A DNA stretch of 64,000 nucleotides. Source: Bacillota bacterium (GTDB lineage Bacteria; Bacillota_I; Bacilli_A; RF39; UBA660). The notes under the pieces were generated by a model, which ran no database searches, had not been told where the DNA came from, and saw only the letters and a program-made list of their open reading frames with translations. Position numbers and translations under genes: made by a program. Numbering within the stretch: the first letter of the stretch is position 1; every line of letters begins with the position of its first letter. Positions 1-49,396 of this stretch are shown here, in pieces. The stretch lies in assembly GCA_015059485.1 (NCBI GenBank), contig SVAH01000004.1:15822-79821 (forward strand), given 5' to 3'.

Positions 1-3000
1 TATATATCTTCTACAAAGTCTTCTATTTCTTGTTCTGGAGTACTAAATGCTATATTTTTTAAGTTTGCATCATGTGATGGCTCTCTTATTACTGTTATTG
101 TATAGTCTTTATACTCTCCAAGTGAATTATAAACTCTTACTATTACAGGATTTTCACCTGTTGTAAATCCATCATTGCCTATTATTTCATAGCTTTGGAA
201 TCTACTCTTAAGTGTTACTGCTATATCTACTGAGTTAACTCCAAATGGTACTGTAAATGTGAAATTATTATTTTCTTCTTCTGCATTTGGATCATATTCA
301 TGATCTAATTTACATATTCCAGTACAATCGAATGAATTTGCTAAACTAACCTTTAATGATGCAAGTTTTAATTCTCTTGTTTTGTTTTGAACTAATCTAA
401 ATGTGTAATTCTTTACAAGTCCTGATTCACTAGTTACTGTAACTAGTAAATCTTTTCCATTATTCATTGTTTTTGGAAGCGTAATATTATGAGCTCCATC
501 TTCATTATTAAGTACTATATTTTTTAATTCTTTAGTAGTTTCATCATCAAATATACCATACTCAATTACTGGGGATGATTGACTATTTTGTTCACTGGTA
601 AGTGTTACAACTTCATCATTTATTGTATATGATTTAATCGTATTATCATTAGATAAGATATGAGTAACATTAATTATATATCTTTCATGTGTTTCACCAT
701 CTTCTGCTGTTGTTGTTATTACATAATTATTATCATTACTACTAAAGTCTAATGTTAATGTTGCTGGGAAACTTACTGTTGCATTTGGATCCATCAATTC
801 ATATGATAAATCACTTCTACTTAATGTTGGCTTAGTTTTTGGAACTCTTAATGTATAAGCTTTAATATCTGGATCAAAATCTCCTTCATCAAACTTATAT
901 TGTCCGAATGATAATTTTTTGATTCTTGCTTCTGTTGATGCTGCTCTTGTTATTTTAAATACATATGCAGTTTTAGAACCATCTTCTGCAACTCCATATA
1001 TTGTACATTCTTTTTCTTCTGGTTTTGTTAGTTTACATTGTGTCATAATTGCAGTTGCACCAGGATGTTCCATTTCATAACTCATATCATTTAATGATAA
1101 TTCTCTTACATCACTTGGAACACTTACAGTATATTCAAGTATATCTTTATTAAATCCACTAAATGATATTTCATTATTTCTGAATGATAAACTCTTTATC
1201 TTAGAATTATCTGATAAATCTCTTGTAACATGGATTATATATTCTCTAGCTTCTCCTTCTCTTGGTGTTACTGTTATTGTTATAGTTTTAGTGTGTTCAC
1301 CTATTGCTAGATCATATTTTTCTGCTCCAGTTACTGTTGATTTTGATACTTCTGGTATTGCTGATACTGTTAAACTTGAAGTATTAGCTGGTAAAGAAAT
1401 ACTATATTCTAATGTTTCTTTATCAAATTCTGGTGTTAATACTCCATCAACATCGTCATCACCATTTCTATATACGACTTGTAAACTTGATAAGTAATTA
1501 TTTAAATCATCAGTACTCTTAATGTTTACTGTATAAGTCATAGTAGATTCTCCATCTTCTGCAAGTGTTGTAATCTTTAGTGTTCTTACCTCAGATTCAC
1601 CTATTGTTGGAATTTCTATACTTCCAGTAAATTCTCTTAATGGTTCACTTAATACTTCATCATCATTTACTTTAATACTTGTCATTCTCGCAGTATCTTT
1701 TAATGTTATTGCATTTAAATCAAGTTGTGTTACATCATTATCAATAAATATTGTATAAGTAATTGTATCTTTATCAAATTCTGGTATTAATGTTGTATTT
1801 TCTATACTTATATTTTTAAGTCTTGGATTTTTTGAAATCATTCTAGTAGCATCTATTTGATATTCTTCTTCTGTTTCTCCATCTTCAGCTGTTACTGTTA
1901 TTATTACTGTATATGTTTGTCCAGCTACTTCAAAGTTTTCATTTCCTTCAACTTCATATGAAGCCCAATCATCTACTAATTCTAATTCACTTAAGTCAAG
2001 TTTTGTTTCATCAACCATTACTGCATATATTCTTCCATTTTCAGTAATTGGTGGAACAGTTGTAAATCCAAATGATTTAATTTTTGCTTCATCATTTAGT
2101 TCTCTTTTTATTGTTAATGTATAATCTTTTGTTACACTTCTATCTTCTGCATATCCTCTTAGAATTACTGTTCTTTCTTCAGCTACGCCTTTTGTAAATT
2201 CAATTGTACTTGATATTTCATTATCACTTTCATCAAATAGTTTATATGTTGCATATTCACTATCTTCCATTATTGCTGTGATATCAATTGAATGTGCTTT
2301 TGTATTTATTTCATATTCTGTTGTATCTGGATCAAAATCTTCTAATTCTTCATCTGAAACTTTAATTCCACTTACATTAGGATTTTTATTCAATACTTTT
2401 TCAATTATTACTTCATATGTTAATTCTGTTCCTACTTCTGATGTAACGATTACTCTAAATCTATTTTCTCCTACATTTAGAACTACTGGTAAATTAGTAT
2501 AGTCGTTACCCATTTCATCTAATATTCTATATGTTGCCCATCTATATGATAATGTTGGAGTTATAACTGCTGTTTTTTCATGAGTTGATGATTCATAAGT
2601 ATACCAGTCTTTATCAAATTCTGGAGTATATCCACTTGATACATATAAATCTTTTAATGTTGCATCACTACTTGTTGTTCTTATTACATTTAATTTATAG
2701 TATCTCTTTTTACCATTTGAATTTGTTACAGTTATTATTATTTCGTTTTCACCAAGTTCTAAGTTTGTATTAGAAATAGAAACTCTTGAGGATTCACTAA
2801 TTGGAACTGCATGTATATCTAGACTATGATATGTTGTTTCAATATTATAAGTATTAATATATTGATTAAATTCTGGATCTAATGTATGATCTTCTACTGT
2901 TAATTCTTTTAAATAATTATCTTCAACTGGATCTTTTATTATATTGATAATATATCTTTCTTGTGTTACTCCATCAGATGCTGTTGTTGTTATAATATAA

Positions 3001-6000
3001 TGATTATCACCATTTTCAAAATCTAATGTCATTCTTGCTGGGAAATCTGCTTCTGCATCATCATCCATCATTGTATATGTGAAATCATCTCTTCCAATTG
3101 AAGTTTTTACTTTAGGAACTTTTAATGTATATTCCATTACATCTGGATTAAATTCACCTTCTTCAAATTCATATAATCCAAATTTTAATGTTTTAATTCT
3201 TGCATCAGTTCCAACTTGTCTTGTTACATTGAATGTATAATCTGTTTTAGAACCATTTGCTGCAACTCCAGATATAACACATACATTTACATGTTTACTA
3301 GTTAACTTACATACTGGCATTTCTATTGTTGCTGATTCATCTTCCATTTCATAATTAATATCATTTATAGTTAACTCTTTAACATCATTTAAAACGTCTA
3401 TATTATATGAATATACATCTTCTTCTAATCCATCAAATTTTATTTCTGAATTTTTAAATGATAAACTCTTTATCTTAGAATTATCTGATAATTCTTTTGT
3501 AACATGAATAATATATTCTCTTGTTTGTCCTTCTTTATTAGTTACGGCTACTATTACATCTTTACTATTTTCACCTGATTCTAAAGTATAATTTGTATTT
3601 CCAGTAACAGTTGATTTTATAACTTCTGGTATTGCTGATACTGTAAATGCTGATGTACCTTTTGGCAATTCAATAGTATACTCTAATGTTTCTTTATCAA
3701 ATTCTGGTGTTAATACTCCATCAACATCAGTATCACCATCTTTATATACTAATTGTAAGCTTGATAAGTAGTTATTTATATCATCTGAACTCTTTATATT
3801 AACTGTATATGTCATAGTAGATTCTCCATCTTCAGCAAGTGTTTTAATTGTTAATGTTCTTACCTCAGATTCACCTATTAAAGGAATAGTAATAGTATTA
3901 TTATATTCTCTTACTGGTGTTGATGTTATTTCTGTATCATTTAATTTAATACTTATTATTCTTCCAGTATCTTTTAATGTTTTAGCATTAAGATTAATAC
4001 TTGTTACATCATTATCTACATATACTTTATATGAAGTTGTATCTTTATCAAATTCTGGTGTTAATGTTTTATCATCTATTTTTATAAATTTTAATCTTGG
4101 ATTTGTTGAAATAACTCTTAAAGCATCTATATTGTATTCTTCTTTTGTTACTCCATCTTCTGCTGTTACTATTATTTTTACTGGATATGTTTGACCATAT
4201 GTATCAAAGTTTTCATTTCCTTCAGTTTCATAAGTAGCCCAATCATCCATTAATTCTAAATCTTCTAAATCTATTCTAGTTTCGTCAACTGTTGTATTGT
4301 AATTTCTTTCTGTTTCATTTAATGTTGGATCTGTTGTAAATCCAAATGATTTAATTTTTGCTTCACTACTTGGACTTCTATTAATTGTTAATGTATAGTC
4401 TTTTGTTAAGCTTCTATCTTCTGCATATCCTCTTACTATAACTTTCTTTTGAACAGTTTGACCTTTTGTAAATTCAATATGTGAAGATATTACATTTTCA
4501 GATTCATCAAGTAACTCATAAATTGCGTATTCACTATCTTCCATTGTTGCTTCTATATCTAATGAATGAGCTGTAGTATTTATTTCATATTCTTGAGTAT
4601 TTTTATCAAATCCCTCTAATTCTTCATCTGAAATTTTTATACTACTTACATTAGTATTTCTGTTAATTATTTTTTCAATATCAATTTCATATGTTAACTC
4701 ATTTCCATTTTCTGCTGTTACTACTATTCTAAATTTATTTACTCCAACATTTAATACTACATTTCCATCTGCATATTCATTATCCATTTCATCTAATAAT
4801 TTATATGTCGCATCATCACTACTTAATGTTGCAGTTATTTTTGCAGTATTTTCATGAGTGCTTGATGTATATTTAAATTGATTTTTATTAAATATTGGTC
4901 TATAACCAGTTGATACAGATAAATCTGTTAAGTAAGCATCATCACTTAAAACTCTTTCAATATTTACTATGTATGTTAAACTATCTCCATTTTCTGCTGT
5001 TGTTACTATTCTAAAAGTATTTATTCCTTCATTTAATGTAACTTTTCCATCTTCATATTCATTATTCAAAATATCTAATATTTTATAACTTCCCCATTTA
5101 TTATTCATAGTTGGAATTATAACTGCTGTTTTCTTACTAGTTTTTGAATTATAAATAAGTTGATCTTTATCAAACTCTGGAGTATATCCAGTTGTTACTT
5201 TTAAATTTTTTAATGTTGCATCATCACTTAGTGTTCTAGTTACATTTAATTTATAATATCTTTCTACATCTGTTTCACTAGTTACTGTTATTATAATTTC
5301 ATTTTCACCAAGATCTAAATCAGTTTTTGAAATAGACACTGTTGCATATTTGTTATTAGGGATTGCATTTATTTCTAAACTATGATCTGTAGTTTCTATA
5401 TTATAAGTATCTACTTCTTTATCAAATTCTGGATCTATTGTATTACCAGTAACCGTTAATTCTTTTAAGTAATTATCATCAGATAAAATGTATACTACAT
5501 GAATTCTATATGTTTCATGAGCCTCTTTATCTTCTGATTCTGTTTCTATTACATAATAATTATCTAAACTCTTGAAAACTAATGATACGGAATTTGGGAA
5601 TGTTGCTTTTGCTTGATCATCCATCATTTCATAAACAAAATCATTTCTTCCAATTGTTTTCTTAGTTCTTGTAATATTTAATGTGTAATCATGAACATCT
5701 GGATCAAATGCTCCTTCTTCAAATTCATATGAATTACATGATAATGATTTTATTCTAGCATCTGTTCCTTTTTCTCTTACAATTTTTAATTTATATGTAT
5801 GAGTTTCACCATTTTCTGCTGTTACTGTTATTAATCTTTCATAAGGATTTGTAGTTAATAAGTTTACATTTTCTACATAAACTGGATTAGTTCCAATAAC
5901 TGCTCTTTGATTTTTATTTGCAATAGCTGTAACTTTTACTTCTTTAATATCATGAGTTACTACTAAATTGTATTCATCTATTACTGGTGAGAACTCTGGT

Positions 6001-7400
6001 GTTAATAAGAAGTTTTCATTTCCATTTGAAACAGTTAAACTTACTAAATCTTTATCAGAATAAGCAGTTCTTATAATGATAATTGAATAATCATTATAAG
6101 AACCATCTTCTGCTGTTGCTCTAACTGTAAATGTATTTCTTCCAGCATTTAAGTAATTAACATTGCCTTCTACTATTGCGTATGAAGTTGTTGTCTCTTG
6201 TGGTGTTGCAGTTATTTTAATATTTTCTAATGTTGGTGGTGCATATATATAATATACAAATTTTTCACTTTCAAATTCTTCTGCAAAATTTACTACATTA
6301 TCATATGCATCAAATACCTTCAAGTCACTTAGTAATGCATTTGAGTTTGCTGCTCTATTAACTGTTATGTTGTAATCAAGAGTACTTCCATCTTGTGCTG
6401 TTACTGTTACTTTAAACGAATTCTTTCCAACATTTAATGTTTTATCTCCTAAACCTGCTACTGTTGCAAGATCTTCTTTTTCAGCTTCTCCATCAATTCT
6501 TAAGTTTGTAACATCATTATCTACATTTAATATATATTCTGTTACTCCTTTACTAAATATTGGAGTTAATGGTAATTCTTGTTCACTATTACTATTAGTT
6601 GTATTATAAACATTTAATGATTTCAAGAATGCATTATTACTTCTTAATCTTGTTACATGAATTGTATAAGTTTTTTCAGCTCCATTATTTGCTGTTACTG
6701 TTATTGGAATATGATTATCTGAACCATATTCTAGTAGATCAATATTTTCAATATTAACTGCTGCTCTTATATCATCAGGAATAGCTTCTATTTCAATATG
6801 TTCTACTTCATTTGCAACTGTTATATAGTAATCAGTTACGTTATATGAATAATTTAAAGTAGTTTCTGGATCTGTTACTTTTAGAGATGCAAGATCATTA
6901 TTACCAGTCATATCCCTAGTAATTTTGTAATAATATTTTGTTTCATTCATCCTGTCTTCTGCTTTTACATAAACTTCTATTTCATTTAATCCACCATCAA
7001 GTCTGTAAATTCCATCTCCATTTACATCTTGATAATAATGTGCTTTATCAACTGTTATATTTATTTCTCTTATTTGATATGGAACAGTTATTTCGTATTC
7101 ATCTGTATTTTTATCAAATGCATATTCACACATATGTTCATGTAATCTACAGTATGTAGGTAACATTCCTTCTACTGCTATTTTTTTAGGATATGGATTA
7201 TGATCAGTTTCTCTATGTACATGTACAGTATATGTTTTTACAAGTCCTGATTCACTTGTTACTGTAAGTAATATATCATGATCTCCTGCTTCAATGAAGT
7301 AATTTCCATTTCCAGCAACTGATGCTTTTTCATCTGCTGGAACGCCTTCTATATTAATTTCTGTATCAACACTCTCTAAGTCTAAATCATAAACTGATCT
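1..7400 (-). repeat. Array of tandem cadherin-like beta-sandwich domain repeats (about 255-270 nt per unit) within the giant ORF. Two more units lie at about 8300-9200, between glycine-rich modules 3 and 4
   Basis: Protein-level periodicity of about 85-90 aa with recurring motifs (...DA.L..L.V..G.L.P.FD...Y.Y...V......I.A.P......V.I......L..GEN.I.ITVT.E.G....Y.I.V.R). Units are diverged at the DNA level but clearly periodic. Confidence 0.65.
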
Positions 7401-10400
7401 ATTATAATCCCATTCTTGTCTCATTTCTCCACGATTTGAAATTATACCTGACAAGAAGTTATTTTCACTTTTTTGATATGGTATTGATAGTTTTACATAT
7501 CCATCTCCACCATGTCCTGTTTCATTTCCTGTGTGAGCTGTATTAGGAAAACTTTCTGAACCAGAGTATGTTTGAGCATCTGTTAATAAGTAGTCTTCTG
7601 AAACTAACCATTTTCCTCCACCAAATGTTTCAGATAATAAGTCAGTTACAATAGCGTAAGATTCTTCGTTATAAATAAATCCAGAACCTCCACCACCACC
7701 AGATGACCATCCTGATGTTGCACCAGAACCTCCGCCGTAGAAGCCGCCTCCGCCGCCTCCACCATAGTAGCCTCCACCACTATTAGGACCTGCTGCTCCG
7801 ACTGCAAATCTTCCTGTTGCTCCACGTGCTCCACCAGTTATACCATAAGTTCCTCCTTGAGTTTGTGTTCCACCTCCGGCATTAGTACCACATGATCCTT
7901 GACCATTTTTACCTCCACCGTTTTGGCCTCCACCAACTCCACCAAAGGCACATCCGTCACTTCCGTGACCTCCACCACCTCCGGCAATTAGGATTCTTGA
8001 ATATACTGAATTTGTTCCAAATCTAATATCAGATGCACCTCCACCGTAACCGGCTCTTGATGATCCTCCACCATTGAATCCACCATTGTCTCCAGAACCT
8101 CCTGCACAAAGATATAAAACTTCACCTTTGTTCAAATAAACTTTTCCAGTTGAGTAACCACCTCGGCCACCACCTCGGCCACCTTGAGCTCCCCAAGCTT
8201 CTAATTGATATTCATGACTATATGGAACAACAAATGTAGTACATGTTCCTGTATAACCTGTATTTTGTTCAAATCCACTAACTGTAATTCTTTTAATATT
8301 AAATATGTATGTTGTTGGATCACTATGTGGCTCTGTTATATTTACTAAGATAGTATATATATCAGATGATATATATCCATCACCAATAACTTCATATTCA
8401 GCTTCTGCATCAAATAATTCTGGTATTGCTCTTGCTGTTGCTACATAGCTTTCAAGTTCAATATTATAAACTTCTTTTCCATCTTCCATCATGTATTCAA
8501 ATTCTTCATCAGAACCTGATATTAATGTTAGTTTTTTCAATTTACTTGAATGTGGTAATGTTACATGTAATGTATAAGTTTTACTACTTGTATGAGTTTC
8601 ATTTTCAACATTAATAACTAAATCATATGAATTATGTTTTTCTAAAATATGTGCAACAGATTCTTCAACTCCAAATTTGTGTGTAGGATCAATGCTTGAG
8701 TAAATATCAAATACTTGATCAGCTGATCCTTTTGTTATATTTAAATCATATTCATCAAAACTATAAGGAAGTGTTATGTTATATTCATATGTATTCTTAT
8801 TAAAATCAACTGACGAATAGTTAGATAGGGATTTATCATTGATTTTTAAATCGTTTAATATGTCTATATCATTTGCTTCTCTTTCGATTTTATAATTAAA
8901 TATATCAACTGCTCCATTAACATATGTTATTGATATTGGATAATTATTTTCTCCAACATGTATTTCATGTCTTCCTGCATTTTGATATGTAAGTACCGAT
9001 TCATCATCTGTTAAATCTACATCAAAGTCTACTACTGATGATGTATTATCAACTGTACCAATATAATTTTTTGTATCATAATCAAATGGTTTATCAAGTG
9101 TAACATTATCAGAAACATTAATTTTATATTTATAAGATAAAGTAAAATCAAATCTGACATATCCTTCTCCATAATTTCCAGTCATTGTTCCTGTTCCATC
9201 ATGGTTTGGCATTGATGAGTAACCATTTAATATTACTGGGTTTGTTAGGAATCTAGATCTTGATACTTCGTAATCTGCTGGTACATAGCCTGCATATTCA
9301 CTGCACCAAACGTATGAAGATCCTCCTCCTCCTCCATTATCGTCGTTTCCTGATCCATCTGGATATCCGTGGCCACCGCCATACCAGCCGCCGCCTCCGG
9401 CTCCAACATAACCGTCATTACCCAAATATTGTGATGCTCCTTTAGCCCACATACCGCCGTCCCAGCCACCGCCGGACATTGTTCCTCGACCACCTTGTGA
9501 TCCACAACCACCATTATTTCCTTCGGCGTCACCTGGTCCTCCAGTACCTCTTGCTCCAGCGCCACCGCCGCCTCCGGCAACTAGCACTCTATGATATGTT
9601 GTTTTTCCACCTAAACGAATGTCTGAGGCACCTCCACCTCTTACACCCCAAGGTATTACTATATTTTGGTTACCATCTCTATATTGATATGGTTCACCAC
9701 CACCATTATATCCTCCATTGGCACCACTACATCCTACATATACATAGACAGTTTCACCTTTTGATAAGAATATATTAGCTTTTGTATAAGATCCTGGCCC
9801 ACCTTGTACTCCAGTTGATTGTCCTTGAGCTCCCCAAGCTTCAACTGTATAAATTCCACTGGCTGGGGCCATAAATTCTTGAACATCTTTTGTACAACCA
9901 TATCCATAACTTCCAGTTGATCCTGCTTGCCAATAATAGCTAGATTTTCTAAATGTTATGTTGTATGTTCTACTAAGACCTGTTATATCATTTGTAACTT
10001 TTAATGTATATAAATATTCTTTTTGATTTGCATCACTGAAATCATAATTACCACTATGATTTTCAGTACGGCTAAATCCATCTGCAATTATTGCATTTAC
10101 ATTAATATATTTAGTATCATCTGATACTGTTATTGTATAATCGTATTTTGTATAATCAAAATCTATTGGTATTTTTCCACCATTTATTGAAATAGAATCA
10201 ATACCATTTAATAATTTTGGAGTTAATCTGATATAACCATTTCCTCCATGTCCAGTTTCATTTCCACCAGCCGGGTTTTTAAATGATTCCCAACCGCCAT
10301 GAATAAAGCCATTTGACATATAGAATTTATCAGATACTTCATAGCCTTCTGGTACGTAGCCAACGCTTCCGGCGCTCCAGATAAATCCAGAACCTCCGCC

Positions 10401-12107
10401 ACCTCCAGAGTCATCATCTCCAGAGCCATCTGGGTATGCTCCGCCGCCGCCGTACCAGCCGCCGCCTCCAGCTCCTCCGTAACCTCCAGCATGATAGATT
10501 TCAGATCCTCCAGTCTGCCATGTACCACCGGCATAACCTCCGCCAGTCATTCCTCCGGCATATCCAACCGTTCCACAACCAGCGCCACCATTTCCACTTC
10601 CGGCTCCACCAACAACTCTAGCTCCAGCGCCACCACCTCCGGCAGCAACTAAAAGTCTATGTTTCAAAGTATTTCCACCAATTCTTATATCAGTAGATCC
10701 ACCACCATATACATTTGTTGGAGCTTGATAGAATCCACCGTTTGAATAATACCAATAGCAGTGACCTCCACCATTCCATCCTTTTGTTCTTCCATCACGT
10801 GTTACAGTACTTCCTGCTCCACCTACATAAAGATAAAGTTTTTGACCTTTAGAAAAATCAACATCTGCTACTGTATAACCGCCTCGGCCTCCAGCAGGTC
10901 CTCTATTTCCACCTTGAGCTCCCCAAGCTTCTACTGTCCAAGTACCTGTTGATGGAATATAGAATTCTTGATATTCACCAGTATATGGAATATCATAATA
11001 AACTTGATTTCCTGATTGTTTCAAATAATAGTTTACTTGATTTATTTTTACATTATATATGCTAGTAAGTCCTGTTGCTACATGAGTTACTGTTATCACT
11101 TCAGTAGCTGAAGTTGTACTTGATAAATCTAATCTTCTTTGAGAATAAGAAATTGTATATCCCTCTTTAGGGGTAATATTAAATAGAACTGATTTAACAT
11201 CATTATCAACTGTTATAGTATAATTTTTTAATTTGTATGTATAAATTATATTTACTGCACCATTATTTAATTTTATTGTATCAATGCCATCTGGTTCAAC
11301 AGTAGTAATCCTTGCAAAACCATCACCAGCTCTTGCACCTGTTGAATATGAAAAACTATACATTTGTAAACGAGCAGGTACTGTATAACCACTAGGGACA
11401 TTACCAGTAGTTCCTTCATTCCAAATAAATGAAGAACCACCTCCACCACCTTTGTCATCGTCACCAGATCCATCAGGGTATGCTCCGCCGCCGCCGTACC
11501 AGCCGCCGCCTCCAGCTCCAGCATATCCTCCGGCTGCTACATATCCAGCACCACCTTGTCCAAATGATCCGCCATTTCCGCCGCCTCCATTAATGGAAGC
11601 TCCTGCACCTCCGGATCCACATCCGCCACAAGTTCCGCCACCATCAAGTCCGCCAGAACCTCCACAGTTACGATCAGCACCATCAGTACCTCCACCTCCG
11701 GCAACAATTAAACGAGAATATAGTGAATCTGTATTAAATCTAATATCAGTAGCTCCTCCACCATAGTGAGAAAATCCATTTCTTTTTCCTCCACCATTCC
11801 ATCCTTGGTGAGTTTGCCCTGAACCACCTACATAAACATAGAATCTATCGCCTTTTTTAACATACAAATACCCGCTAGAGTATCCACCACGTCCAGCGTT
11901 ATCTCCGCCACGGTATCCACCTTGAGCTCCCCAAGTTTCAAAACGATATATACCATCTGTAGGAGCTACCCATTCTTGAGCATGTCCTGAATATGGAAAA
12001 TCATAAACAGTTTGAGTAGGTTCATCCGCAAAAACCTCCACGCTAAAAAGTATATTCATTACAAATATACATAATAAAAAATTTACAAAGTGTTTTACTT
12101 CTCTCAT
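1..12107 (-). CDS. Giant secreted surface/adhesin-like protein, 5' part only (ORF continues past the left window edge; >4,030 codons in-window). It has a signal peptide, four glycine-rich modules, and at least 35 cadherin-like (CHB-type) beta-sandwich repeats
   Basis: ATG at 12107 (rc of cat 12105-12107), preceded by AGGGA 5 nt upstream. Reading downward in frame (12107 mod 3 = 2) gives coherent protein: MREVKHFVNFLLCIFVMNILFSVEVFADEPTQTVYDFPYSGHAQEWVAPTDGIYRFETWGAQGGYRGG... No minus-strand ORF in this frame is listed anywhere in 1-12107 in the ORF track, which is what is expected if the ORF lacks a stop inside the window. The small listed ORFs here (for example the P-rich 11452-11766 + ORF and the EAAAGTAAAEH minus ORFs) are alternate-frame or reverse-strand shadows of Gly codons. 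The downstream repeats carry the typical cadherin-like pattern L..L.V..G.L.P.F......Y.V.V......V.V.A...D..A.V.I......L..G.N...I.VTAE.G....Y.I.V.R. Confidence 0.7.
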   Translation of the reverse strand, partial: MREVKHFVNFLLCIFVMNILFSVEVFADEPTQTVYDFPYSGHAQEWVAPTDGIYRFETWGAQGGYRGGDNAGRGGYSSGYLYVKKGDRFYVYVGGSGQTHQGWNGGGKRNGFSHYGGGATDIRFNTDSLYSRLIVAGGGGTDGADRNCGGSGGLDGGGTCGGCGSGGAGASINGGGGNGGSFGQGGAGYVAAGGYAGAGGGGWYGGGGAYPDGSGDDDKGGGGGSSFIWNEGTTGNVPSGYTVPARLQMYSFSYSTGARAGDGFARITTVEPDGIDTIKLNNGAVNIIYTYKLKNYTITVDNDVKSVLFNITPKEGYTISYSQRRLDLSSTTSATEVITVTHVATGLTSIYNVKINQVNYYLKQSGNQVYYDIPYTGEYQEFYIPSTGTWTVEAWGAQGGNRGPAGGRGGYTVADVDFSKGQKLYLYVGGAGSTVTRDGRTKGWNGGGHCYWYYSNGGFYQAPTNVYGGGSTDIRIGGNTLKHRLLVAAGGGGAGARVVGGAGSGNGGAGCGTVGYAGGMTGGGYAGGTWQTGGSEIYHAGGYGGAGGGGWYGGGGAYPDGSGDDDSGGGGGSGFIWSAGSVGYVPEGYEVSDKFYMSNGFIHGGWESFKNPAGGNETGHGGNGYIRLTPKLLNGIDSISINGGKIPIDFDYTKYDYTITVSDDTKYINVNAIIADGFSRTENHSGNYDFSDANQKEYLYTLKVTNDITGLSRTYNITFRKSSYYWQAGSTGSYGYGCTKDVQEFMAPASGIYTVEAWGAQGQSTGVQGGPGSYTKANIFLSKGETVYVYVGCSGANGGYNGGGEPYQYRDGNQNIVIPWGVRGGGASDIRLGGKTTYHRVLVAGGGGGAGARGTGGPGDAEGNNGGCGSQGGRGTMSGGGWDGGMWAKGASQYLGNDGYVGAGGGGWYGGGHGYPDGSGNDDNGGGGGSSYVWCSEYAGYVPADYEVSRSRFLTNPVILNGYSSMPNHDGTGTMTGNYGEGYVRFDFTLSYKYKINVSDNVTLDKPFDYDTKNYIGTVDNTSSVVDFDVDLTDDESVLTYQNAGRHEIHVGENNYPISITYVNGAVDIFNYKIEREANDIDILNDLKINDKSLSNYSSVDFNKNTYEYNITLPYSFDEYDLNITKGSADQVFDIYSSIDPTHKFGVEESVAHILEKHNSYDLVINVENETHTSSKTYTLHVTLPHSSKLKKLTLISGSDEEFEYMMEDGKEVYNIELESYVATARAIPELFDAEAEYEVIGDGYISSDIYTILVNITEPHSDPTTYIFNIKRITVSGFEQNTGYTGTCTTFVVPYSHEYQLEAWGAQGGRGGGRGGYSTGKVYLNKGEVLYLCAGGSGDNGGFNGGGSSRAGYGGGASDIRFGTNSVYSRILIAGGGGGHGSDGCAFGGVGGGQNGGGKNGQGSCGTNAGGGTQTQGGTYGITGGARGATGRFAVGAAGPNSGGGYYGGGGGGGFYGGGSGATSGWSSGGGGGSGFIYNEESYAIVTDLLSETFGGGKWLVSEDYLLTDAQTYSGSESFPNTAHTGNETGHGGDGYVKLSIPYQKSENNFLSGIISNRGEMRQEWDYNRSVYDLDLESVDTEINIEGVPADEKASVAGNGNYFIEAGDHDILLTVTSESGLVKTYTVHVHRETDHNPYPKKIAVEGMLPTYCRLHEHMCEYAFDKNTDEYEITVPYQIREINITVDKAHYYQDVNGDGIYRLDGGLNEIEVYVKAEDRMNETKYYYKITRDMTGNNDLASLKVTDPETTLNYSYNVTDYYITVANEVEHIEIEAIPDDIRAAVNIENIDLLEYGSDNHIPITVTANNGAEKTYTIHVTRLRSNNAFLKSLNVYNTTNSNSEQELPLTPIFSKGVTEYILNVDNDVTNLRIDGEAEKEDLATVAGLGDKTLNVGKNSFKVTVTAQDGSTLDYNITVNRAANSNALLSDLKVFDAYDNVVNFAEEFESEKFVYYIYAPPTLENIKITATPQETTTSYAIVEGNVNYLNAGRNTFTVRATAEDGSYNDYSIIIIRTAYSDKDLVSLTVSNGNENFLLTPEFSPVIDEYNLVVTHDIKEVKVTAIANKNQRAVIGTNPVYVENVNLLTTNPYERLITVTAENGETHTYKLKIVREKGTDARIKSLSCNSYEFEEGAFDPDVHDYTLNITRTKKTIGRNDFVYEMMDDQAKATFPNSVSLVFKSLDNYYVIETESEDKEAHETYRIHVVYILSDDNYLKELTVTGNTIDPEFDKEVDTYNIETTDHSLEINAIPNNKYATVSISKTDLDLGENEIIITVTSETDVERYYKLNVTRTLSDDATLKNLKVTTGYTPEFDKDQLIYNSKTSKKTAVIIPTMNNKWGSYKILDILNNEYEDGKVTLNEGINTFRIVTTAENGDSLTYIVNIERVLSDDAYLTDLSVSTGYRPIFNKNQFKYTSSTHENTAKITATLSSDDATYKLLDEMDNEYADGNVVLNVGVNKFRIVVTAENGNELTYEIDIEKIINRNTNVSSIKISDEELEGFDKNTQEYEINTTAHSLDIEATMEDSEYAIYELLDESENVISSHIEFTKGQTVQKKVIVRGYAEDRSLTKDYTLTINRSPSSEAKIKSFGFTTDPTLNETERNYNTTVDETRIDLEDLELMDDWATYETEGNENFDTYGQTYPVKIIVTAEDGVTKEEYNIDALRVISTNPRLKFIKIDDKTLTPEFDKDTTSYKVYVDNDVTSINLNAKTLKDTGRIISIKLNDTEITSTPVREYNNTITIPLIGESEVRTLTIKTLAEDGESTMTYTVNIKSSDDINNYLSSLQLVYKDGDTDVDGVLTPEFDKETLEYTIELPKGTSAFTVSAIPEVIKSTVTGNTNYTLESGENSKDVIVAVTNKEGQTREYIIHVTKELSDNSKIKSLSFKNSEIKFDGLEEDVYSYNIDVLNDVKELTINDINYEMEDESATIEMPVCKLTSKHVNVCVISGVAANGSKTDYTFNVTRQVGTDARIKTLKFGLYEFEEGEFNPDVMEYTLKVPKVKTSIGRDDFTYTMMDDDAEADFPARMTLDFENGDNHYIITTTASDGVTQERYIINIIKDPVEDNYLKELTVEDHTLDPEFNQYINTYNIETTYHSLDIHAVPISESSRVSISNTNLELGENEIIITVTNSNGKKRYYKLNVIRTTSSDATLKDLYVSSGYTPEFDKDWYTYESSTHEKTAVITPTLSYRWATYRILDEMGNDYTNLPVVLNVGENRFRVIVTSEVGTELTYEVIIEKVLNKNPNVSGIKVSDEELEDFDPDTTEYEINTKAHSIDITAIMEDSEYATYKLFDESDNEISSTIEFTKGVAEERTVILRGYAEDRSVTKDYTLTIKRELNDEAKIKSFGFTTVPPITENGRIYAVMVDETKLDLSELELVDDWASYEVEGNENFEVAGQTYTVIITVTAEDGETEEEYQIDATRMISKNPRLKNISIENTTLIPEFDKDTITYTIFIDNDVTQLDLNAITLKDTARMTSIKVNDDEVLSEPLREFTGSIEIPTIGESEVRTLKITTLAEDGESTMTYTVNIKSTDDLNNYLSSLQVVYRNGDDDVDGVLTPEFDKETLEYSISLPANTSSLTVSAIPEVSKSTVTGAEKYDLAIGEHTKTITITVTPREGEAREYIIHVTRDLSDNSKIKSLSFRNNEISFSGFNKDILEYTVSVPSDVRELSLNDMSYEMEHPGATAIMTQCKLTKPEEKECTIYGVAEDGSKTAYVFKITRAASTEARIKKLSFGQYKFDEGDFDPDIKAYTLRVPKTKPTLSRSDLSYELMDPNATVSFPATLTLDFSSNDNNYVITTTAEDGETHERYIINVTHILSNDNTIKSYTINDEVVTLTSEQNSQSSPVIEYGIFDDETTKELKNIVLNNEDGAHNITLPKTMNNGKDLLVTVTSESGLVKNYTFRLVQNKTRELKLASLKVSLANSFDCTGICKLDHEYDPNAEEENNNFTFTVPFGVNSVDIAVTLKSRFQSYEIIGNDGFTTGENPVIVRVYNSLGEYKDYTITVIREPSHDANLKNIAFSTPEQEIEDFVEDI
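7440..12030 (-). repeat. Four tandem glycine-rich coding modules (about 0.7-1.0 kb each) inside the giant ORF; each begins with a (E/A)(T/A)WGAQGG motif and ends with GGGGWYGGGG...GGGG(S)SxFIW
   Basis: The DNA motif gagctccccaag(c/t)ttc occurs four times on the + strand, near 8195, 9822, 10910 and 11919. A stretch of at least 44 nt, gggtatgctccgccgccgccgtaccagccgccgcctccagctcc, is identical at 10432-10475 and 11476-11519. Translated modules share Y.YVGG.G...GGYNGGG...GGGASDIR...R.LVAGGGGG...GAGGGGWYGGGG.YPDGSGDD..GGGGGS.FIW. Confidence 0.75.
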
Positions 12108-12131
12108 ACAAATCCCTATCCTTATTATCTA

Positions 12132-12170
12132 CTAAGTAAATTATAACATAAAAGTATCTTATTCGACAAT
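12132..12170 (-). promoter_or_regulatory. Putative sigma-A type promoter for the giant gene: -35 TTGTCG (rc of 12164-12169), 18-nt spacer, extended -10 TGtTATAAT (rc of 12140-12148)
   Basis: The reverse complement of 12139-12170 reads ttgtcgaataagatacttttatgTTATAAT, located about 25-60 nt upstream of the ATG at 12107. Confidence 0.4.
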
Positions 12171-12180
12171 TTTTTTCTAA

Positions 12181-12220
12181 AAAAAACATAAAAAAAAGAA
12201 GATTTATTTTTTATCTTCTT
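12181..12220 (-). terminator. Rho-independent terminator ending the rimP-nusA-infB-rbfA-truB-ORF12204 transcription unit
   Basis: Stem aagaagat (12196-12203) pairs with atcttctt (12213-12220) around a 9-nt loop. It is followed on the minus strand by TTTTTTTATGTTTTTT (rc of 12181-12195). The hairpin overlaps the stop of ORF 12204-12680. Confidence 0.55.
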
Positions 12221-12680
12221 TCTTATCAAATCCACAATCTAAATAAACTGAAATTTTATAATCTTTTTTGCCATATGGGTTAGTTGGATATATAGTTACC
12301 ATTGATTTTTCAGCATTGCATTTTTTCTTTTTTTCAGTATTTTCAAACTTAGTTTTATTCTTATCTTTTAAAGTATTGTTGTATCTTTGAAGATTTTCTA
12401 AATTAATCTTTAATCCAACACTAGAAAAATTTTGTAAGTATTCTTTCTTATCTTTTAATTCTTCAGAATTTGCAGCAGAGGCATAATAATAATTTTCATA
12501 ATAATCTCTGCCAATTTTTTCTAGTTCTTTTGTAAGCATTTCTTCTTCACTTACTTTATCTTTTCCAAATATACAAACAAGTGCAATAATCAAACCAACT
12601 ACTGCTATAGCTCCTACTACCACCAAAGTAATCTTTTTATTCTCTTTAATTTTACTTATAACATTTTTCATTCTTATCAC
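12204..12680 (-). CDS. Hypothetical small membrane-anchored protein (N-terminal TM helix, Lys/Glu-rich extracytoplasmic part)
   Basis: 158-aa ORF. Hydrophobic segment ITLVVVGAIAVVGLIIALVCIF. No recognisable family. Confidence 0.5.
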   Translation of the reverse strand: MIRMKNVISKIKENKKITLVVVGAIAVVGLIIALVCIFGKDKVSEEEMLTKELEKIGRDYYENYYYASAANSEELKDKKEYLQNFSSVGLKINLENLQRYNNTLKDKNKTKFENTEKKKKCNAEKSMVTIYPTNPYGKKDYKISVYLDCGFDKKEDKK

Positions 12681-27135: not shown

Positions 27136-27717
27136 CTATCTTTTAAAATCAAGATTTTTAAATAAAGTCCTATAGATTAATCTAAAAGTAAATAAAATTA
27201 AGCTATTTAAGTATAAATCCTTTAATACATCTTCTCTTTTAGAAAAATAATCATGTTTTAATATAATCCTATTATTAATAGATAAACATTTTAATATAAT
27301 TAAATCTTCATATTTAATAGTTCTAATTCTTTTACAAACTTCACTACAATTAAACAACTTACACGTCAAGTTAGATGTTGTACATCCATTATTACTTTGA
27401 TGATTACATTTTCTACAACAACCATTTATCTTATCATTTAATCTTTGAGTATAGCATTTACCATTAATAAATCCACATATATTTTTATTCATATTATAAT
27501 CATCTATCTTTTTACATGCACTATCATATACAAAAGTTATTCTTTCTTTTCTATTTTTTATATTTAAAGCGGTAATTATCACTTCTAAATCACTATCTTT
27601 AATATTTGATTCTAATTTAAATTTGCAATTTCTAAAAAAGAAAGATTTATAATATTTAATCTTTCTTAAAAATTTCTTTTTATCAAATTCATTATTTATA
27701 ACTACTATTTTTTTCAT
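27136..27717 (-). CDS. Cys-rich hypothetical protein (9 Cys in about 45 aa: CGFINGKCYTQRLNDKINGCCRKCNHQSNNGCTTSNLTCKLFNCSEVCK); possible metal or Fe-S binding protein
   Basis: 193-aa ORF. Its start overlaps the stop of ORF 27714-29171 by 4 nt. It lies 32 nt upstream of sufB. It is not a clean CxxCxxCC (YkgJ) or radical-SAM motif. Confidence 0.45.
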   Translation of the reverse strand: MKKIVVINNEFDKKKFLRKIKYYKSFFFRNCKFKLESNIKDSDLEVIITALNIKNRKERITFVYDSACKKIDDYNMNKNICGFINGKCYTQRLNDKINGCCRKCNHQSNNGCTTSNLTCKLFNCSEVCKRIRTIKYEDLIILKCLSINNRIILKHDYFSKREDVLKDLYLNSLILFTFRLIYRTLFKNLDFKR

Positions 27718-29171
27718 CGTTTTATATTGCTTTCTTGTTCATCACGTAATGATTCATTATATTTTTCTGATTTCAATTTAATATCATCAAGAACTTTCTT
27801 AAGAATCTGAATATTCTCTAATAAATTTTTTTCTTTATCCATAGGAATTACATAACCTCCAAATAAATCATCAACCAAGTATCCTAATTTTTTTAGAAAA
27901 CTACCTTCAGCTCTATCATAAATAGATATATAACTACCATTTACTCTAACATGTATTCCAAATGAATCACAATAATTATTTATCGAAACAATAAGATTTT
28001 CTAAATAACCATTTTCCTTTAATACTAAGTTATCTTCTTTTGATAAATATTTTATTTTTTTAGATAATAATTCATTAATCAAATTAGCTTCTTCATAAGT
28101 TTTTTGATTTTCTAATAATCTTTTATATAATTCAAATTGATTTTTTAGATATTCATCATTTAAAATATACTTGTCTTTAATTTCTCCGAAAGATTCATCA
28201 TCTGTATACTTTTTCCATCTATCAATTGTTTCATGAGTATTAAATAGTTTTATTTCATTATTATTAAACTCTATTCCAAATTTGATTATTAAGTGTGAAA
28301 ACTCATTAAAATTTAATTTTTCACCTTCAGATAATAGGATAAATTGATTGAAAGTCATATTTTTCAAGTCATTACTGTCAATTTCTCTATCGAATATTGA
28401 TGAAAAAAATAAATCTCTTTTTAAAATATAACCTTCTACTTTTCTGTACACGGTTTCAGAATGATAAAAAGTTCCATAATTATTTTTTTTAGAATATTCT
28501 TCTATTAACATTTCATTTTTTTCATTTTTTATTGTATGTACTAATAAAGACTGAGGCTTATATCCCATTGCTATCATTGCTTTAGTTGCAGCAATTATTG
28601 TATCTCCTGTATAAAAAACTATTTTTGCTTTAATACTATTTACATCCAATTGGTCTTTCTCTTCTTCTTTAACTAATATTAATGCATTTTCACTTAGTTT
28701 AATTCTATCTAAAAAAAATGTATCAGAAGCACCAAAACCACAAACTTCACTATCAATTTCATTAAAAGGCTGCAATACAATAAATTTTTTCTTTCTCCAA
28801 TCTCCACCGTTATTTGGCTTTACAACACAATTTAAGGTTGAATGAACTGTAACTCTATGACTTACAGATTTATTTTCTTTATATGTTGATAATAAATCTA
28901 TTACTTTTGCTTTTCCTAATTCACTTGAAATTATTTCACTATTTCTAGGAAAAAAATCTGTTGCATGTACTACGCATAATTCATTTTTTAAGTCCTCATT
29001 AAAATCTAAATCAATTAATTGTTCTAAAGGAATATTTCCTATTGTTGGATTATCTCCATCAATAACAAATCTTTTATCTTTTAACATTGTTGAATATAAA
29101 TATCTAGCATATTTAAAATATTCTATTTTATTTTCCATTTCTTTATCCATTATTTCTGTCATTATTATCAC
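27714..29171 (-). CDS. Hypothetical 485-aa cytoplasmic protein; no family recognised
   Basis: Long ORF with good coding character. Translationally coupled to the Cys-rich ORF. Confidence 0.5.
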   Translation of the reverse strand: MIIMTEIMDKEMENKIEYFKYARYLYSTMLKDKRFVIDGDNPTIGNIPLEQLIDLDFNEDLKNELCVVHATDFFPRNSEIISSELGKAKVIDLLSTYKENKSVSHRVTVHSTLNCVVKPNNGGDWRKKKFIVLQPFNEIDSEVCGFGASDTFFLDRIKLSENALILVKEEEKDQLDVNSIKAKIVFYTGDTIIAATKAMIAMGYKPQSLLVHTIKNEKNEMLIEEYSKKNNYGTFYHSETVYRKVEGYILKRDLFFSSIFDREIDSNDLKNMTFNQFILLSEGEKLNFNEFSHLIIKFGIEFNNNEIKLFNTHETIDRWKKYTDDESFGEIKDKYILNDEYLKNQFELYKRLLENQKTYEEANLINELLSKKIKYLSKEDNLVLKENGYLENLIVSINNYCDSFGIHVRVNGSYISIYDRAEGSFLKKLGYLVDDLFGGYVIPMDKEKNLLENIQILKKVLDDIKLKSEKYNESLRDEQESNIKR

Positions 29172-29261
29172 CTCATTTTAAATAATACATTAAGAAATTT
29201 TCTTTTTCTAAATTTTTCGTGAAGAAAATAAAAGAAATGTAAAAATCCTCATAATAAGACT

Positions 29262-30557
29262 CTACCTAAACATTGTTGAAATCAAATAAACTATTGATAA
29301 ACATGACATAAATATTATAGATAAAATTACCATTAAAGAAACTTTGCCATCTTTATTGCTTGTACTTTTTTCTAATTTTCTTTTTAATTCATCTTTTCTC
29401 TCTTCACTCATTCCTTCAAGTTTCTGTTTTTTCTCTAAAGGATTTGTTAATTCATAAAATTTTTCTACTGCATTAATTTGATTTTTGTTTAGCATTCCTT
29501 GTTCTTTATAGACTTCCAATTCACTTATATAAATATGATATTTTTTAAAATATTGTAATACTTCCTCTGATAAATATTCTTCATAAATATACATATCTCC
29601 TAAAGTCTGTTCCCATAGTTTAACTTGACTTTCTTGTTCTTTATTAAGTGGATTTGGACTATTATTTAAATCTAGAAAATCTTGGAATGGTATTAATTCA
29701 ACTTTTTCTTCTTCTTTTTTTGTTTTATCTTCTAACTGTTCTTCATTTTCTTTTAGCTCTTCTTTACTATTATCTTTCGCCTTATCATTTTCTTCTTTTT
29801 CTCTACCATATTTTTCAACAACTAAATTGCCATCATTATCTCTTTTATAAGTTCTAGTTTCATTATTTTCAGGATGTAAAGTATCCACTATTGTTATTAT
29901 ATCTTCATTTTCATTACCATAAACATGAACTCCTTGTTTTCCTTCAAACTCTTTTTTTACACCATCTATTTTATTTTTAAAGTCTTCAGAAACATATGAA
30001 TTATTATCCATATTTAAAGTATTATCTAAACTAACTTCTGGCAAATATCTACTTACAAGACTAATAAAAGAATCTAAGTTTTTATCATTTTTCATTAAAT
30101 ATTCATCCATGACTATAGAAAGATCAAAATCTCTATCATTTTTAAACATATGTACTTTAGAAGAACTATCAATCATATTAAAATATTGTTCATGTGAAAA
30201 ATCATGGTCTTTATTAATAACCGTAATATTTTTTAATACTTCATTACCTTTTTTTACTTGATTAATTAGTTCAGTATTTCTATCTTTAATATTAAAACTA
30301 CCCGTTTTTAAAGATGCTGCCATTACATCAGAATTTATTTTTAAAATATTAAATAAAGATTCCATTTTCATAGTATATATTTCTTTTAATAATTTTTCAT
30401 TAGCATTAACAATATTTTTAATATTAATTTTATCAAGTGGAAGAGTTTTTCCATTATATATAAGATTTTTTCCATCTAGTTTAACATCTTTAAATTCATC
30501 TGGATTAATCCCATTTAAATATCTTAAAACTTCCATATTTTCTTCTAAATTAGTCAT
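29262..30557 (-). CDS. Hypothetical 431-aa protein with acidic coiled-coil region and C-terminal TM anchor (tail-anchored)
   Basis: The last about 25 aa, VSLMVILSIIFMSCLSIVYLISTMFR, are hydrophobic. Mid-region is Lys/Glu-rich. Confidence 0.5.
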   Translation of the reverse strand: MTNLEENMEVLRYLNGINPDEFKDVKLDGKNLIYNGKTLPLDKINIKNIVNANEKLLKEIYTMKMESLFNILKINSDVMAASLKTGSFNIKDRNTELINQVKKGNEVLKNITVINKDHDFSHEQYFNMIDSSSKVHMFKNDRDFDLSIVMDEYLMKNDKNLDSFISLVSRYLPEVSLDNTLNMDNNSYVSEDFKNKIDGVKKEFEGKQGVHVYGNENEDIITIVDTLHPENNETRTYKRDNDGNLVVEKYGREKEENDKAKDNSKEELKENEEQLEDKTKKEEEKVELIPFQDFLDLNNSPNPLNKEQESQVKLWEQTLGDMYIYEEYLSEEVLQYFKKYHIYISELEVYKEQGMLNKNQINAVEKFYELTNPLEKKQKLEGMSEERKDELKRKLEKSTSNKDGKVSLMVILSIIFMSCLSIVYLISTMFR

Positions 30558-33528: not shown

Positions 33529-33651
33529 ATAGTCTCCTTTCTTTACTGCTTGGAGACTTATTATAAATATATATTTTCTACTTTCAAGTCTTTCGACAAA
33601 AGATATCAAAACTAGAACTTTTTTGACATAAAAAAAAGGCTTATCTTAAGC

Positions 33652-48655: not shown

Positions 48656-49396
48656 CTAATTATACTCAGTAAATAGTAGTTTTAAATCTTTTTTGGATAT
48701 TTTAAAAGATGTACCATGATCATGGTATTCTCCTTTATGAATTCCACTTTTATATATTCCATATTTAAAAGTTACATAAATTGTTCCGGTTTCAATCAAA
48801 TTTAAAAATTTTTCAAATGTTTTTAAAACATAACACTTTATTTCCTTATAAAAATAATAATAATTACCATTTGAATAAATTTTATCAGTTGTTATCAGAG
48901 CTAATTTTGATAATTTTAATTCTAATTTTGATTTTACATCATCAAAATCCCAATAAAGATCTGAATTTATTAATTCTTTTTTATAATTATAAATATCTAA
49001 AATAATTTTTTGATTAACATAATCTACTCTTAATTTATAATAATTAAACAACCCAATTTTCCTTAGTTCATTTCCATAAATATCACCTTTAAATACTTTT
49101 TTATTTTTAAAGTCTTTATCTGGATATCCATATTTTTCAGCAATCCATTGCGTCGAAAAAACATGATTACTATCTGGTGTAGAATTAAATAAATCAAATG
49201 TGGCATCATTATAATTTCTGATAGCTTTTAATTCAATTCCATAATAATCCGGAAAGCAAAAATCACTTCCACCTGCATTTAGCATTTTTTCTAAAGTTTG
49301 TCCAGCACCATTTGCACTTTTTATTTCAGATTTAACAAATCCTTGTTTCTTTATATTTTCAAATTCTTTAAGTAACTTTTCGAAATCTTTATCCAT
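48656..49396 (-). CDS. MvaI/BcnI-family (MutH-like PD-(D/E)XK) type II restriction endonuclease homolog, apparently without adjacent methyltransferase
   Basis: 246 aa. Catalytic-type motif CFPDYYGIELKAIRN (D-x4-E-L-K). The N-terminal ...LLKEFENIKKQGFV...GAGQTLEKMLNAGGS and the C-terminal YHDHGTSFKISKKDL match my memory of BcnI/MvaI (about 240 aa, ending ...HDRGPHLRIPISKL). Confidence 0.5.
   Translation of the reverse strand: MDKDFEKLLKEFENIKKQGFVKSEIKSANGAGQTLEKMLNAGGSDFCFPDYYGIELKAIRNYNDATFDLFNSTPDSNHVFSTQWIAEKYGYPDKDFKNKKVFKGDIYGNELRKIGLFNYYKLRVDYVNQKIILDIYNYKKELINSDLYWDFDDVKSKLELKLSKLALITTDKIYSNGNYYYFYKEIKCYVLKTFEKFLNLIETGTIYVTFKYGIYKSGIHKGEYHDHGTSFKISKKDLKLLFTEYN

Follow-up and report, generated by a model that had tools for sequence, protein, structure and literature searches.

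A giant reading frame with four ALK/LTK-type glycine-rich domains and a cadherin-like repeat stalk in an uncultured Bacillota bacterium: a candidate fibrillar adhesin

At one end of a 64,000-nucleotide stretch of contig SVAH01000004.1 from a Bacillota bacterium (assembly GCA_015059485.1, positions 15,822 to 79,821 of the forward strand; the whole stretch is called the window here), the minus strand carries an open reading frame (ORF) that starts at position 12107 and is still open where it leaves the window at base 1. It encodes four glycine-rich domains of the Pfam family PF12810 and a long series of cadherin-like repeats. We favor, with moderate confidence, the reading that its product is a secreted fibre, tethered to the cell through a dockerin and carrying four recognition heads, much in the manner of a fibrillar adhesin. 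A preliminary description of the window, made from its letters, had noticed the giant ORF and interpreted it as an adhesin; the observation stands, and the interpretation is supported in part.

In the mechanism that we propose, a Sec-type signal peptide would export the protein, and a C-terminal type I dockerin, following a Big_2 domain, would tie it non-covalently to a cohesin-bearing partner on the cell surface. Approximately 45 cadherin-like (PF12733) beta-sandwich domains would form a stalk. An immunoglobulin-like domain contributes about 4 nm, and the stalk, if extended, would thus be roughly 150–200 nm long. Four old and diverged head paralogues, which lie in the N-terminal third and are spaced by one to three stalk domains, would act as distal recognition heads. 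If these heads are binding modules, as is suggested by analogy with their carriers in ALK/LTK, phages, and Trichomonas, the whole protein would be a multivalent adhesin.

The protein opens no long-standing question; every domain in it is already catalogued, and it is one of many similar database entries. Its interest lies in the use of ALK-type glycine-rich domains, shared with phages, as multiple heads on a stalk that is probably anchored by a dockerin. Should the proposed reading be correct, uncultured gut and rumen Firmicutes would carry half-megadalton fibres whose heads belong to the domain family of the ligand-binding part of human ALK and LTK and of phage proteins from the tail-tip region, and bacterial members of PF12810, labelled “function unknown” since 2010, would gain a testable role. 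It would also add a head domain and a dockerin anchor to those in the main text of a survey of fibrillar adhesins (PMC8286594), and it would suggest that phages and the surface proteins of their hosts have exchanged recognition modules.

The giant reading frame and its full length

The preliminary description had claimed an ORF of more than 4,000 codons, read on the minus strand from 12107 without an in-frame stop, and this is what we find. Translated from the ATG at 12105–12107, positions 3–12107 of the minus strand give 4,035 codons in one frame, with no stop between 12107 and base 3; the feature as a whole occupies 1–12107 (minus strand) and comprises the first 4,035 of 5,564 codons. The other five frames across the same 12.1 kb contain 188–566 stops each, and their longest open stretch is 140 codons. 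The coding strand has a GC content of 32%, a composition that predicts a stop approximately every 11 codons and gives a stop-free frame of 4,035 codons a probability of about 1e-164. A few codons before the start ATG, the frame is closed by a stop. We also considered whether TGA might be read as a sense codon, which is ruled out by the 29 TGG and zero TGA codons in the frame; translation table 11 is therefore adequate for this ORF. As had been remarked, the ORF is missing from the program-made ORF track, where reading frames crossing the end of the source are not listed.

The full length of the protein is given by matching contigs (L014 and L015), which were located via the TruB protein, the product of a gene two positions upstream of the giant one. 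Two public contigs, Ga0214506_1001094 of JGI 3300021318 (35.8 kb) and k141_94111 of ENA ERZ27247007, match the window over 16.4 kb with 100% identity, and gene calling on the matching contigs yields a giant product of 5,564 residues that ends well inside the contig. The protein thus runs past position 1, as had been supposed, and the window holds the first 73% of it. A Logan contig (L016) carries the same upstream gene and lay outside the comparisons of identity to the window.

Could the ORF nevertheless be an artefact, a chimera produced by the assembly of repeats, or else a decaying pseudogene without function? We consider this very improbable. Long repeat arrays are prone to misassembly, and the stalk does contain a duplicated block of about 850 residues, but the two copies share only 72–77% of their DNA sequence, which makes them too diverged for easy collapse or chimera formation. 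The identity of the two public contigs to the window argues in the same direction, as do the 4,035 stop-free codons at this GC content and the existence of colinear orthologues in many genomes. The ORF encodes a real protein of approximately 0.6 MDa, which we predict to be secreted.

The prediction of secretion comes from the N terminus. Residues 1–27 (12027–12107, minus strand) resemble a signal peptide when read by eye, with MREVKH followed by a hydrophobic core and by VFA before DE, so that the small residues V and A occupy positions -3 and -1. Orthologues have the same kind of N terminus, although they are only 22–30% identical there. Before the start codon, a Shine-Dalgarno-like purine stretch, AAGGATAGGGA, was found by direct reading of the sequence (12113–12123, minus strand; it ends 5 nucleotides before the ATG), and a consensus scan returned a promoter-like site at 12140–12169 (minus strand), composed of TTGTCG, an 18-nucleotide spacer, and TATAAT with the TG extension of an extended -10 element. 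Both are pattern matches only.

A protein of this size is large without being extreme. The preliminary description had placed it among the largest bacterial proteins, a rank that does not hold when its own relatives reach 7,663 residues and metagenome proteins of up to 85,804 residues have been reported, “Dockerin-type” giants of Omnitrophota among them (bioRxiv 10.1101/2023.11.21.568195). Those Omnitrophota giants resemble the present protein in being very long, repeat-rich, extracellular (as we predict for ours), and proposed to act in attachment. They differ in exceeding 30,000 residues, in their many dockerin/EF-hand and thrombospondin repeats, transmembrane anchors, and SecA-like domains, and in coming from another phylum.

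Glycine-rich heads, their fold, and their carriers

The four heads match the PF12810 profile (now named ALK_LTK_GRD, earlier Gly_rich) far above its gathering cut-off of 24.5 bits, and each spans approximately positions 6–242 of the 243 in the profile. All lie on the minus strand: head 1 at residues 29–285 (11253–12023; 113.6 bits; 30% glycine), head 2 at residues 362–646 (10170–11024; 96.8 bits), head 3 at residues 722–1004 (9096–9944; 97.5 bits), and head 4 at residues 1275–1562 (7422–8285; 93.4 bits). They are approximately 260–290 residues long, contain 26–31% glycine, and are 44–52% identical to one another in pairwise comparison. The alignment of the four modules shows a DGSGDDD motif in the first three that is lacking in the fourth. 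The four modules whose motifs had been quoted in the preliminary description are thus present, and its assignment of them to PF12810 is borne out by scores of 93–114 bits.

A structural prediction of one module, which had been suggested as a check, gave a confident model. With an alignment of 30 heads as input, the AlphaFold model of head 1 has a mean predicted local distance difference test score (pLDDT) of 91.1 and a predicted template modelling score (pTM) of 0.90. Beta strands are found at either end of the model, and its residues from about 109 to 200 are assigned to neither helix nor sheet by DSSP at pLDDT values of 80–97, a pattern compatible with polyglycine-II helices as DSSP would render them. 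When this model was compared with the Protein Data Bank (PDB) using Foldseek, the best 21 matches were all to the ALK/LTK ligand-binding domain (E 2e-8 to 4e-6, probability 1.0, TM-scores of 0.42–0.50), the titles of these entries describing the domain as ligand-binding. Among solved structures, only ALK and LTK match the model at E <= 1e-6; the next match after them is one of the tail-tip chains of mycobacteriophage Bxb1, at E 1.7e-3. The relationship can be recovered from sequence as well. A search of PDB sequences with head 1 as a single sequence gave nothing useful, and a profile of 30 bacterial heads was required to reach the ALK, LTK, and nematode SCD-2 chains (E 2.6e-6 to 7e-3). On the evidence of this profile and of the modelled fold, we regard the bacterial heads as true members of the ALK/LTK glycine-rich family. 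The beta-solenoid-like module that had been suggested earlier was considered and is ruled out, as the fold is that of the ALK/LTK domains, TNF-like plus glycine-rich, the only solved structures that the head matches.

The kinship with ALK and LTK (PDB entries 7NX1, 7MZY, 7LRZ, and 7N00) is that of the whole domain, as all four modules match the entire profile, at about 20% identity. The architectures are otherwise dissimilar: the giant protein has no kinase, EGF-like, or transmembrane part, carries four copies per chain with beta-sandwich spacers between them, and is bacterial. The ALK/LTK ligands are the ALKAL cytokines, for which the giant protein has no known counterpart. In ALK and LTK, the glycine-rich domain is the extracellular ligand-binding domain, according to the passages of PMC13243192 that cite De Munck et al. 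2021 and Reshetnyak et al. 2021.

The arrangement of four heads is shared with orthologues. The database proteins nearest to the N-terminal region are fragments, 45–52% identical, in which heads and stalk domains alternate in the same way. Two longer relatives, a full-length protein of 4,647 residues (P0121) and a 4,809-residue ORF labelled “uncultured Tenericutes bacterium UMGS484” (L001), of which near-identical copies occur in several human-gut contigs, are colinear with the giant protein over its first 2,100 residues and have the same four heads at the same positions. The heads of the giant protein are 66–77% identical to their positional counterparts in P0121 and 52–66% identical to those in L001, versus 44–52% for their own paralogues. 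They are therefore closer to their counterparts than to each other, and the four-head arrangement must be old and maintained. Relatives in mouse-gut metagenome-assembled genomes (MAGs) are proteins of 3,018 residues with three heads. Two further relatives carry, besides domains of the ALK type, a different glycine- and serine-rich N-terminal domain (P0122, residues 1–370; P0123, residues 1–420 and approximately 2000–2400).

The same theme extends well beyond the orthologues. With the last 1,200 residues of the protein as encoded in the window as the query, 4,240 cluster representatives matched at E <= 0.001, 358 of them at E <= 1e-30, and the best relative was 36% identical; against genome and metagenome contigs, the last 536 residues find relatives of at most 33% identity. 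We counted architectures among the best 150 of the cluster representatives found with the last 1,200 residues, and 41 of these carry one to nine glycine-rich heads. The preliminary description had thought several modules in front of a stalk to be unusual, an assessment that is not upheld by these counts or by the orthologues, which keep the same four. Judged by these domain matches, the head–stalk architecture is a widespread and diversified family in gut-type MAGs and no singular insertion.

Close relatives of the heads by fold occur in phages. Three families in PHROGs (7388, 5811, and 1589) match head 1 at E 1e-33 to 1e-25, and all are labelled “unknown function”. In BFVD, 87 entries match head 1 at E <= 0.001, the best of which is a protein of an uncultured siphovirus (TM-score 0.89, root-mean-square deviation 1.4 Å, 46% identity); among the others are a protein with a tail-collar domain and a minor tail protein of a mycobacteriophage. 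An alignment-based scan of IMG/VR found 280 stretches that match the heads, with up to 52% identity, whereas a scan of viral contigs with a single head sequence returned nothing, and a tblastn search of GenBank phages with module 1 gave no match, probably owing to the low-complexity filter. In phages, the genes for these proteins are located downstream of the tape measure and ahead of the lysis genes. On one viral contig (L040), the head gene stands two genes past the tape measure and before the endolysin. In a prophage-like region of Blautia wexlerae (L034, 10001–13192; JAAIPC010000011.1), a triple-head protein is encoded upstream of a GH25/CHAP lysin and downstream of a 2,407-residue protein whose sole Pfam match is DUF6273, and the gene two ORFs upstream of it has weak matches to tail-fibre PHROGs. 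In the triple-domain prophage proteins, the first domain starts at residue 2, and there is no signal peptide. These phage proteins have the same domain as the giant protein, at up to 46–52% identity, but are only 300–1,060 residues long and have neither a cadherin-like stalk nor a dockerin. Gut Firmicutes contain hundreds of proteins of 870–1,063 residues that consist of three glycine-rich domains.

Eukaryotes supply another set of carriers. Noel et al. 2010 (PMC2843621) described the domain at the N terminus of twelve Trichomonas BspA-like surface proteins, noted it in C. difficile and in phages of that species as well, and presented it as new and without a known function; the earlier statement that PF12810 occurs in Firmicutes and Trichomonas was accordingly correct. 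Compared by description, without alignment, the Trichomonas vaginalis proteins resemble the giant protein in having an N-terminal glycine-rich domain followed by repeats and a predicted surface location, and they differ in having one domain per protein, a body of leucine-rich repeats, and no dockerin, as well as in being eukaryotic. We read the heads as binding modules because their carriers are extracellular, have a predicted exposure at the surface, or are encoded within a tail-tip module of phages, an argument from analogy.

The phage relationship admits a more specific interpretation, in which the heads are phage-derived receptor-binding modules and the protein is a device for attaching to other microbes, the heads recognizing the envelopes of bacteria nearby; it might serve epibiotic attachment or competition, or act as a decoy for phages. 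The similarity to gut phage proteins in fold and sequence is close, the phage genes belong to the tail-tip module, and four diverged heads with conserved positions would suit several targets. We nevertheless find this interpretation improbable. There is no evidence as to the target, and the presence of the same domain on eukaryotic receptors and on surface proteins of a eukaryotic parasite means that a bacterial target is not implied. Moreover, Pfam detected no toxin or enzyme domain in the 4,035 residues encoded in the window.

Stalk, C terminus, and attachment to the cell

The fibre that we favor would owe its length to the repeats of PF12733, the “cadherin-like beta sandwich domain” of Pfam. 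This family matches the part of the giant protein in the window with an E value of 1.9e-125 and 410 bits in total (cut-off 24.2); Pfam reports 19 separate stretches when E values up to 0.1 are admitted, and 27 when the limit is raised to 10. A hidden Markov model (HMM) that we derived from the repeats in iterative rounds detects 31 complete domains and a partial 32nd at the window edge, fewer than the more than 35 that had been counted before. All are encoded on the minus strand. One follows head 1 (residues 286–361; 11025–11252; E 1e-14 with the repeat-built HMM), one follows head 2 (residues 647–721; 9945–10169), three follow head 3 (residues 1005–1274; 8286–9095), and 26 follow head 4. With the start of the 32nd, these last form the stalk at residues 1563–4035 (1–7421; PF12733 and repeat-built HMM), which is acidic and contains 4% glycine. 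The order given in the preliminary description, modules and then repeats, thus holds for the 26 repeats beyond the fourth module and fails for the five that sit between modules.

The assignment of the repeats to PF12733, which had also been made earlier, passes its threshold widely and agrees with the modelled fold. An AlphaFold model of one stalk unit, from an alignment of 31 units, is an eight-strand all-beta sandwich with a pLDDT of 92.5. Its PDB matches are weak and generic, and include Rib domains, the Bacteroides secreted protein BF4250, and cadherin-6 (E 0.05, TM-score 0.44). The 31-unit alignment contains no invariant column, only two nearly invariant tyrosines, and no conserved acidic linker motif of the type that binds calcium in cadherins. 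Classical extracellular cadherin domains were tested as an identity for the repeats and rejected, with the best cadherin match at E 0.05 and no acidic linker motifs. The repeats are cadherin-like in Pfam's sense only.

Part of the stalk arose by an old duplication, which lengthened it. Residues 2112–2963 (nine domains) and 2964–3729 (eight domains) are 58% identical over about 700 residues (921–5774, minus strand). P0121, the closest of the orthologues, is 917 residues shorter in total, which is nearly the length of the duplicated block, and from this difference we infer that it has a single copy. By colinearity with P0121, approximately 13 more cadherin-like domains would lie beyond the window, for a total of about 45.

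How such a stalk is attached must be read largely from relatives. The marker REPSHDANLK, which the giant protein shares with P0121, lies 1,557 residues from the end of the 5,564-residue product and 1,577 residues from the end of P0121. At the C terminus, Dockerin_1 scores 27.4 bits in P0121, 26.6 in L001, and 38.2 in L002, above the Pfam cut-off of 22.9 bits for the type I dockerin (PF00404), and in P0121 and L001 it is preceded by Big_2. The same duplicated loop motif is present at the C termini of P0122 and P0123. Two closer relatives, of 4,621 and 4,608 residues and with the same small gene upstream, are annotated with GRD, Cadherin-like, Big_2 or another family of weak match, and Dockerin_1. 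On the giant protein itself, the stored Pfam record of the 5,564-residue product lists Dockerin_1 as “faint”, and the 4,035 residues encoded in the window have no match even at E <= 10; the dockerin, if real, is therefore in the last 1,529 residues. More broadly, 69 of the 150 relatives end in a dockerin, as detected with an HMM built from five examples, and 31 combine glycine-rich heads with a C-terminal dockerin. Only two of the 150 have an LPxTG-like motif in their last 60 residues, and such a motif is absent from the last 60 residues of P0121 and not visible at the C terminus of L001. From these relatives, we infer that the giant protein ends in Big_2 and a type I dockerin rather than in LPxTG.

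In layout, the protein corresponds to the fibrillar adhesins of Firmicutes, which share the order head, stalk, and anchor from N to C terminus (Monzon et al. 2021, PMC8286594). The earlier reading of the protein as a fibrillar adhesin is upheld to this extent: a predicted signal peptide, heads, and a repeat stalk agree with the definition of fibrillar-adhesin-like proteins in that survey, and the 26 consecutive domains after head 4 in the window form a stalk of tandem repeats such as it describes. As in known fibrillar adhesins, N-terminal non-repeat domains precede a long tandem array of beta-sandwich domains; unlike in the classic ones, there are multiple heads interleaved with the stalk, and the orthologues have a dockerin in place of LPxTG. 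The main text of the survey contains neither PF12810 nor PF12733, and dockerin is absent from the anchors that it lists; the terms cadherin, glycine, dockerin, and PF12810 do not occur in a follow-up to it. No NCBIfam model covers the giant protein, and our search of the literature found no description of bacterial giants with PF12810 heads. The other obvious comparison is with cellulosomal and non-cellulosomal cohesin–dockerin systems, with which the orthologues share a type I dockerin with a duplicated loop that scores above the Pfam cut-off; in contrast to those systems, no glycoside hydrolase or carbohydrate-binding module was detected in the giant protein.

Several points weigh against a dockerin-tethered, fibrillar-adhesin-like fibre. 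With respect to attachment, the direct sign of a dockerin on the giant protein is a precomputed match of the “faint” class, of which about two in ten pass the Pfam threshold; the last 1,529 residues lie outside the sequence that was read; and no cohesin was found among the scanned window ORFs of at least 150 residues. With respect to export, the signal peptide was judged by eye. With respect to the heads, the TM-scores against ALK and LTK are moderate, the role of the phage head proteins is read from gene position only, their PHROGs being of “unknown function”, and the interleaving of heads and stalk domains departs from the classic adhesin with a single tip. To our knowledge, neither a ligand nor a function in adhesion has been demonstrated for any bacterial protein of PF12810.

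Conserved neighbours, host, and other genes of the window

Directly upstream of the giant gene lies a gene for a 155-residue single-pass membrane protein without a Pfam family (12204–12671, minus strand), and beyond it, on the same strand, rimP-nusA-ylxR-infB-rbfA-truB. Homologues of the 155-residue protein, 38–41% identical, are encoded directly upstream of the giant gene in many other loci (L001, L003, L017–L024, L114, L115, and L116), and the genes beyond the small one differ among those loci. The protein belongs to a small family of 15, none annotated in Pfam. This constancy of position suggests a conserved and probably functional partner, which may be a chaperone, an anchor, or an assembly factor. 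Proteins encoded by neighbours of the giant gene are deposited at NCBI (e.g. MBE6161078.1).

On the other side, the head-bearing gene is followed in several loci by a second giant gene that encodes 1,800–2,485 residues (L001, 16865–22270; L116, 24516–31973; also L018 and L020–L024). Its product has a conserved N-terminal domain of about 200 residues and cadherin-like repeats, with a C-terminal dockerin of its own in L116. In one of three homologues, the N-terminal domain gives a nearly full-length, sub-threshold match to Cohesin (E 0.045, 14.4 bits), and a profile search of PDB sequences with it gave no match. We regard the cohesin-like N terminus as a lead only.

The second giant protein raises an alternative that we think rather unlikely, namely that the head-bearing protein is a structural subunit of a larger extracellular array held together by cohesins and dockerins, along with the second giant and possibly the small membrane protein. 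In such an array, the role of the glycine-rich domains would be assembly, or the cohesion of matrix and cells in aggregation or biofilm. The order of small membrane protein, head-bearing giant, and second giant is kept in the L001-type loci and in L116, and the second giant too ends in Dockerin_1 and has the cohesin hint at its N terminus. That hint, however, is confined to a single homologue of three and falls below the Pfam cut-off, and the search of PDB sequences was empty. In addition, the downstream side of the giant gene lies beyond the window, so that synteny here is assumed. An array would overlap with an adhesive role and does not exclude it.

A bolder form of this idea, which we hold to be quite unlikely, is that the three genes form a cassette whose products chain through cohesin–dockerin pairs into a fibre of several hundred nanometres, with each of the four heads directed at a different target. 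If so, the bacterial and phage domain would be a general extracellular recognition module that was later used by metazoan ALK and LTK.

Relatives carry the label “Tenericutes” or “Bacilli”, and we considered a wall-less, Tenericutes-like host that would need a membrane anchor. The window contains a Mur ligase gene at 20680–22074 and, at 62350–63373 (minus strand), overlapping ORFs for the spore-coat proteins CotJB and a manganese catalase of the CotJC type. The organism is therefore a wall-bearing and probably spore-forming Firmicute, and a wall-less host is ruled out.

Other surface proteins are encoded in the window. At 31585–33609 (minus strand) lies the gene for a 674-residue protein of the covalent-binding pilin or adhesin type, which combines a thioester domain (TED) with three prealbumin-like domains of the SpaA kind; the organism thus has other surface adhesins. 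Three ORFs without a Pfam family adjoin this gene at 27136–30557. A 592-residue protein (17779–19557, minus strand) has a weak match to camelysin/TasA in its first 80 residues (Peptidase_M73, 26 bits) and is possibly another secreted fibre or matrix protein. Another very large product, a hypothetical protein of 2,451 residues (MBE6161120.1; 54905–62260, minus strand), has a hydrophobic segment at its N terminus and extended arrays of short repeats that resemble those of beta-helices (e.g. NNGTLTIKD), with no Pfam or NCBIfam match at E <= 0.1. A 236-residue ORF without a family adjoins it at 54180–54890, and a sigma-70 family gene lies at 53095–53739.

Elsewhere in the window, a gene for a restriction endonuclease of the MvaI/BcnI family (48656–49396, minus strand) adjoins an RmuC-family gene at 49507–50595. 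Thirty of the 38 ORFs of at least 150 residues in the window are on the minus strand. The plus strand contains 26,448 T versus 20,811 A and 10,328 C versus 6,413 G, with a GC content of approximately 26%.

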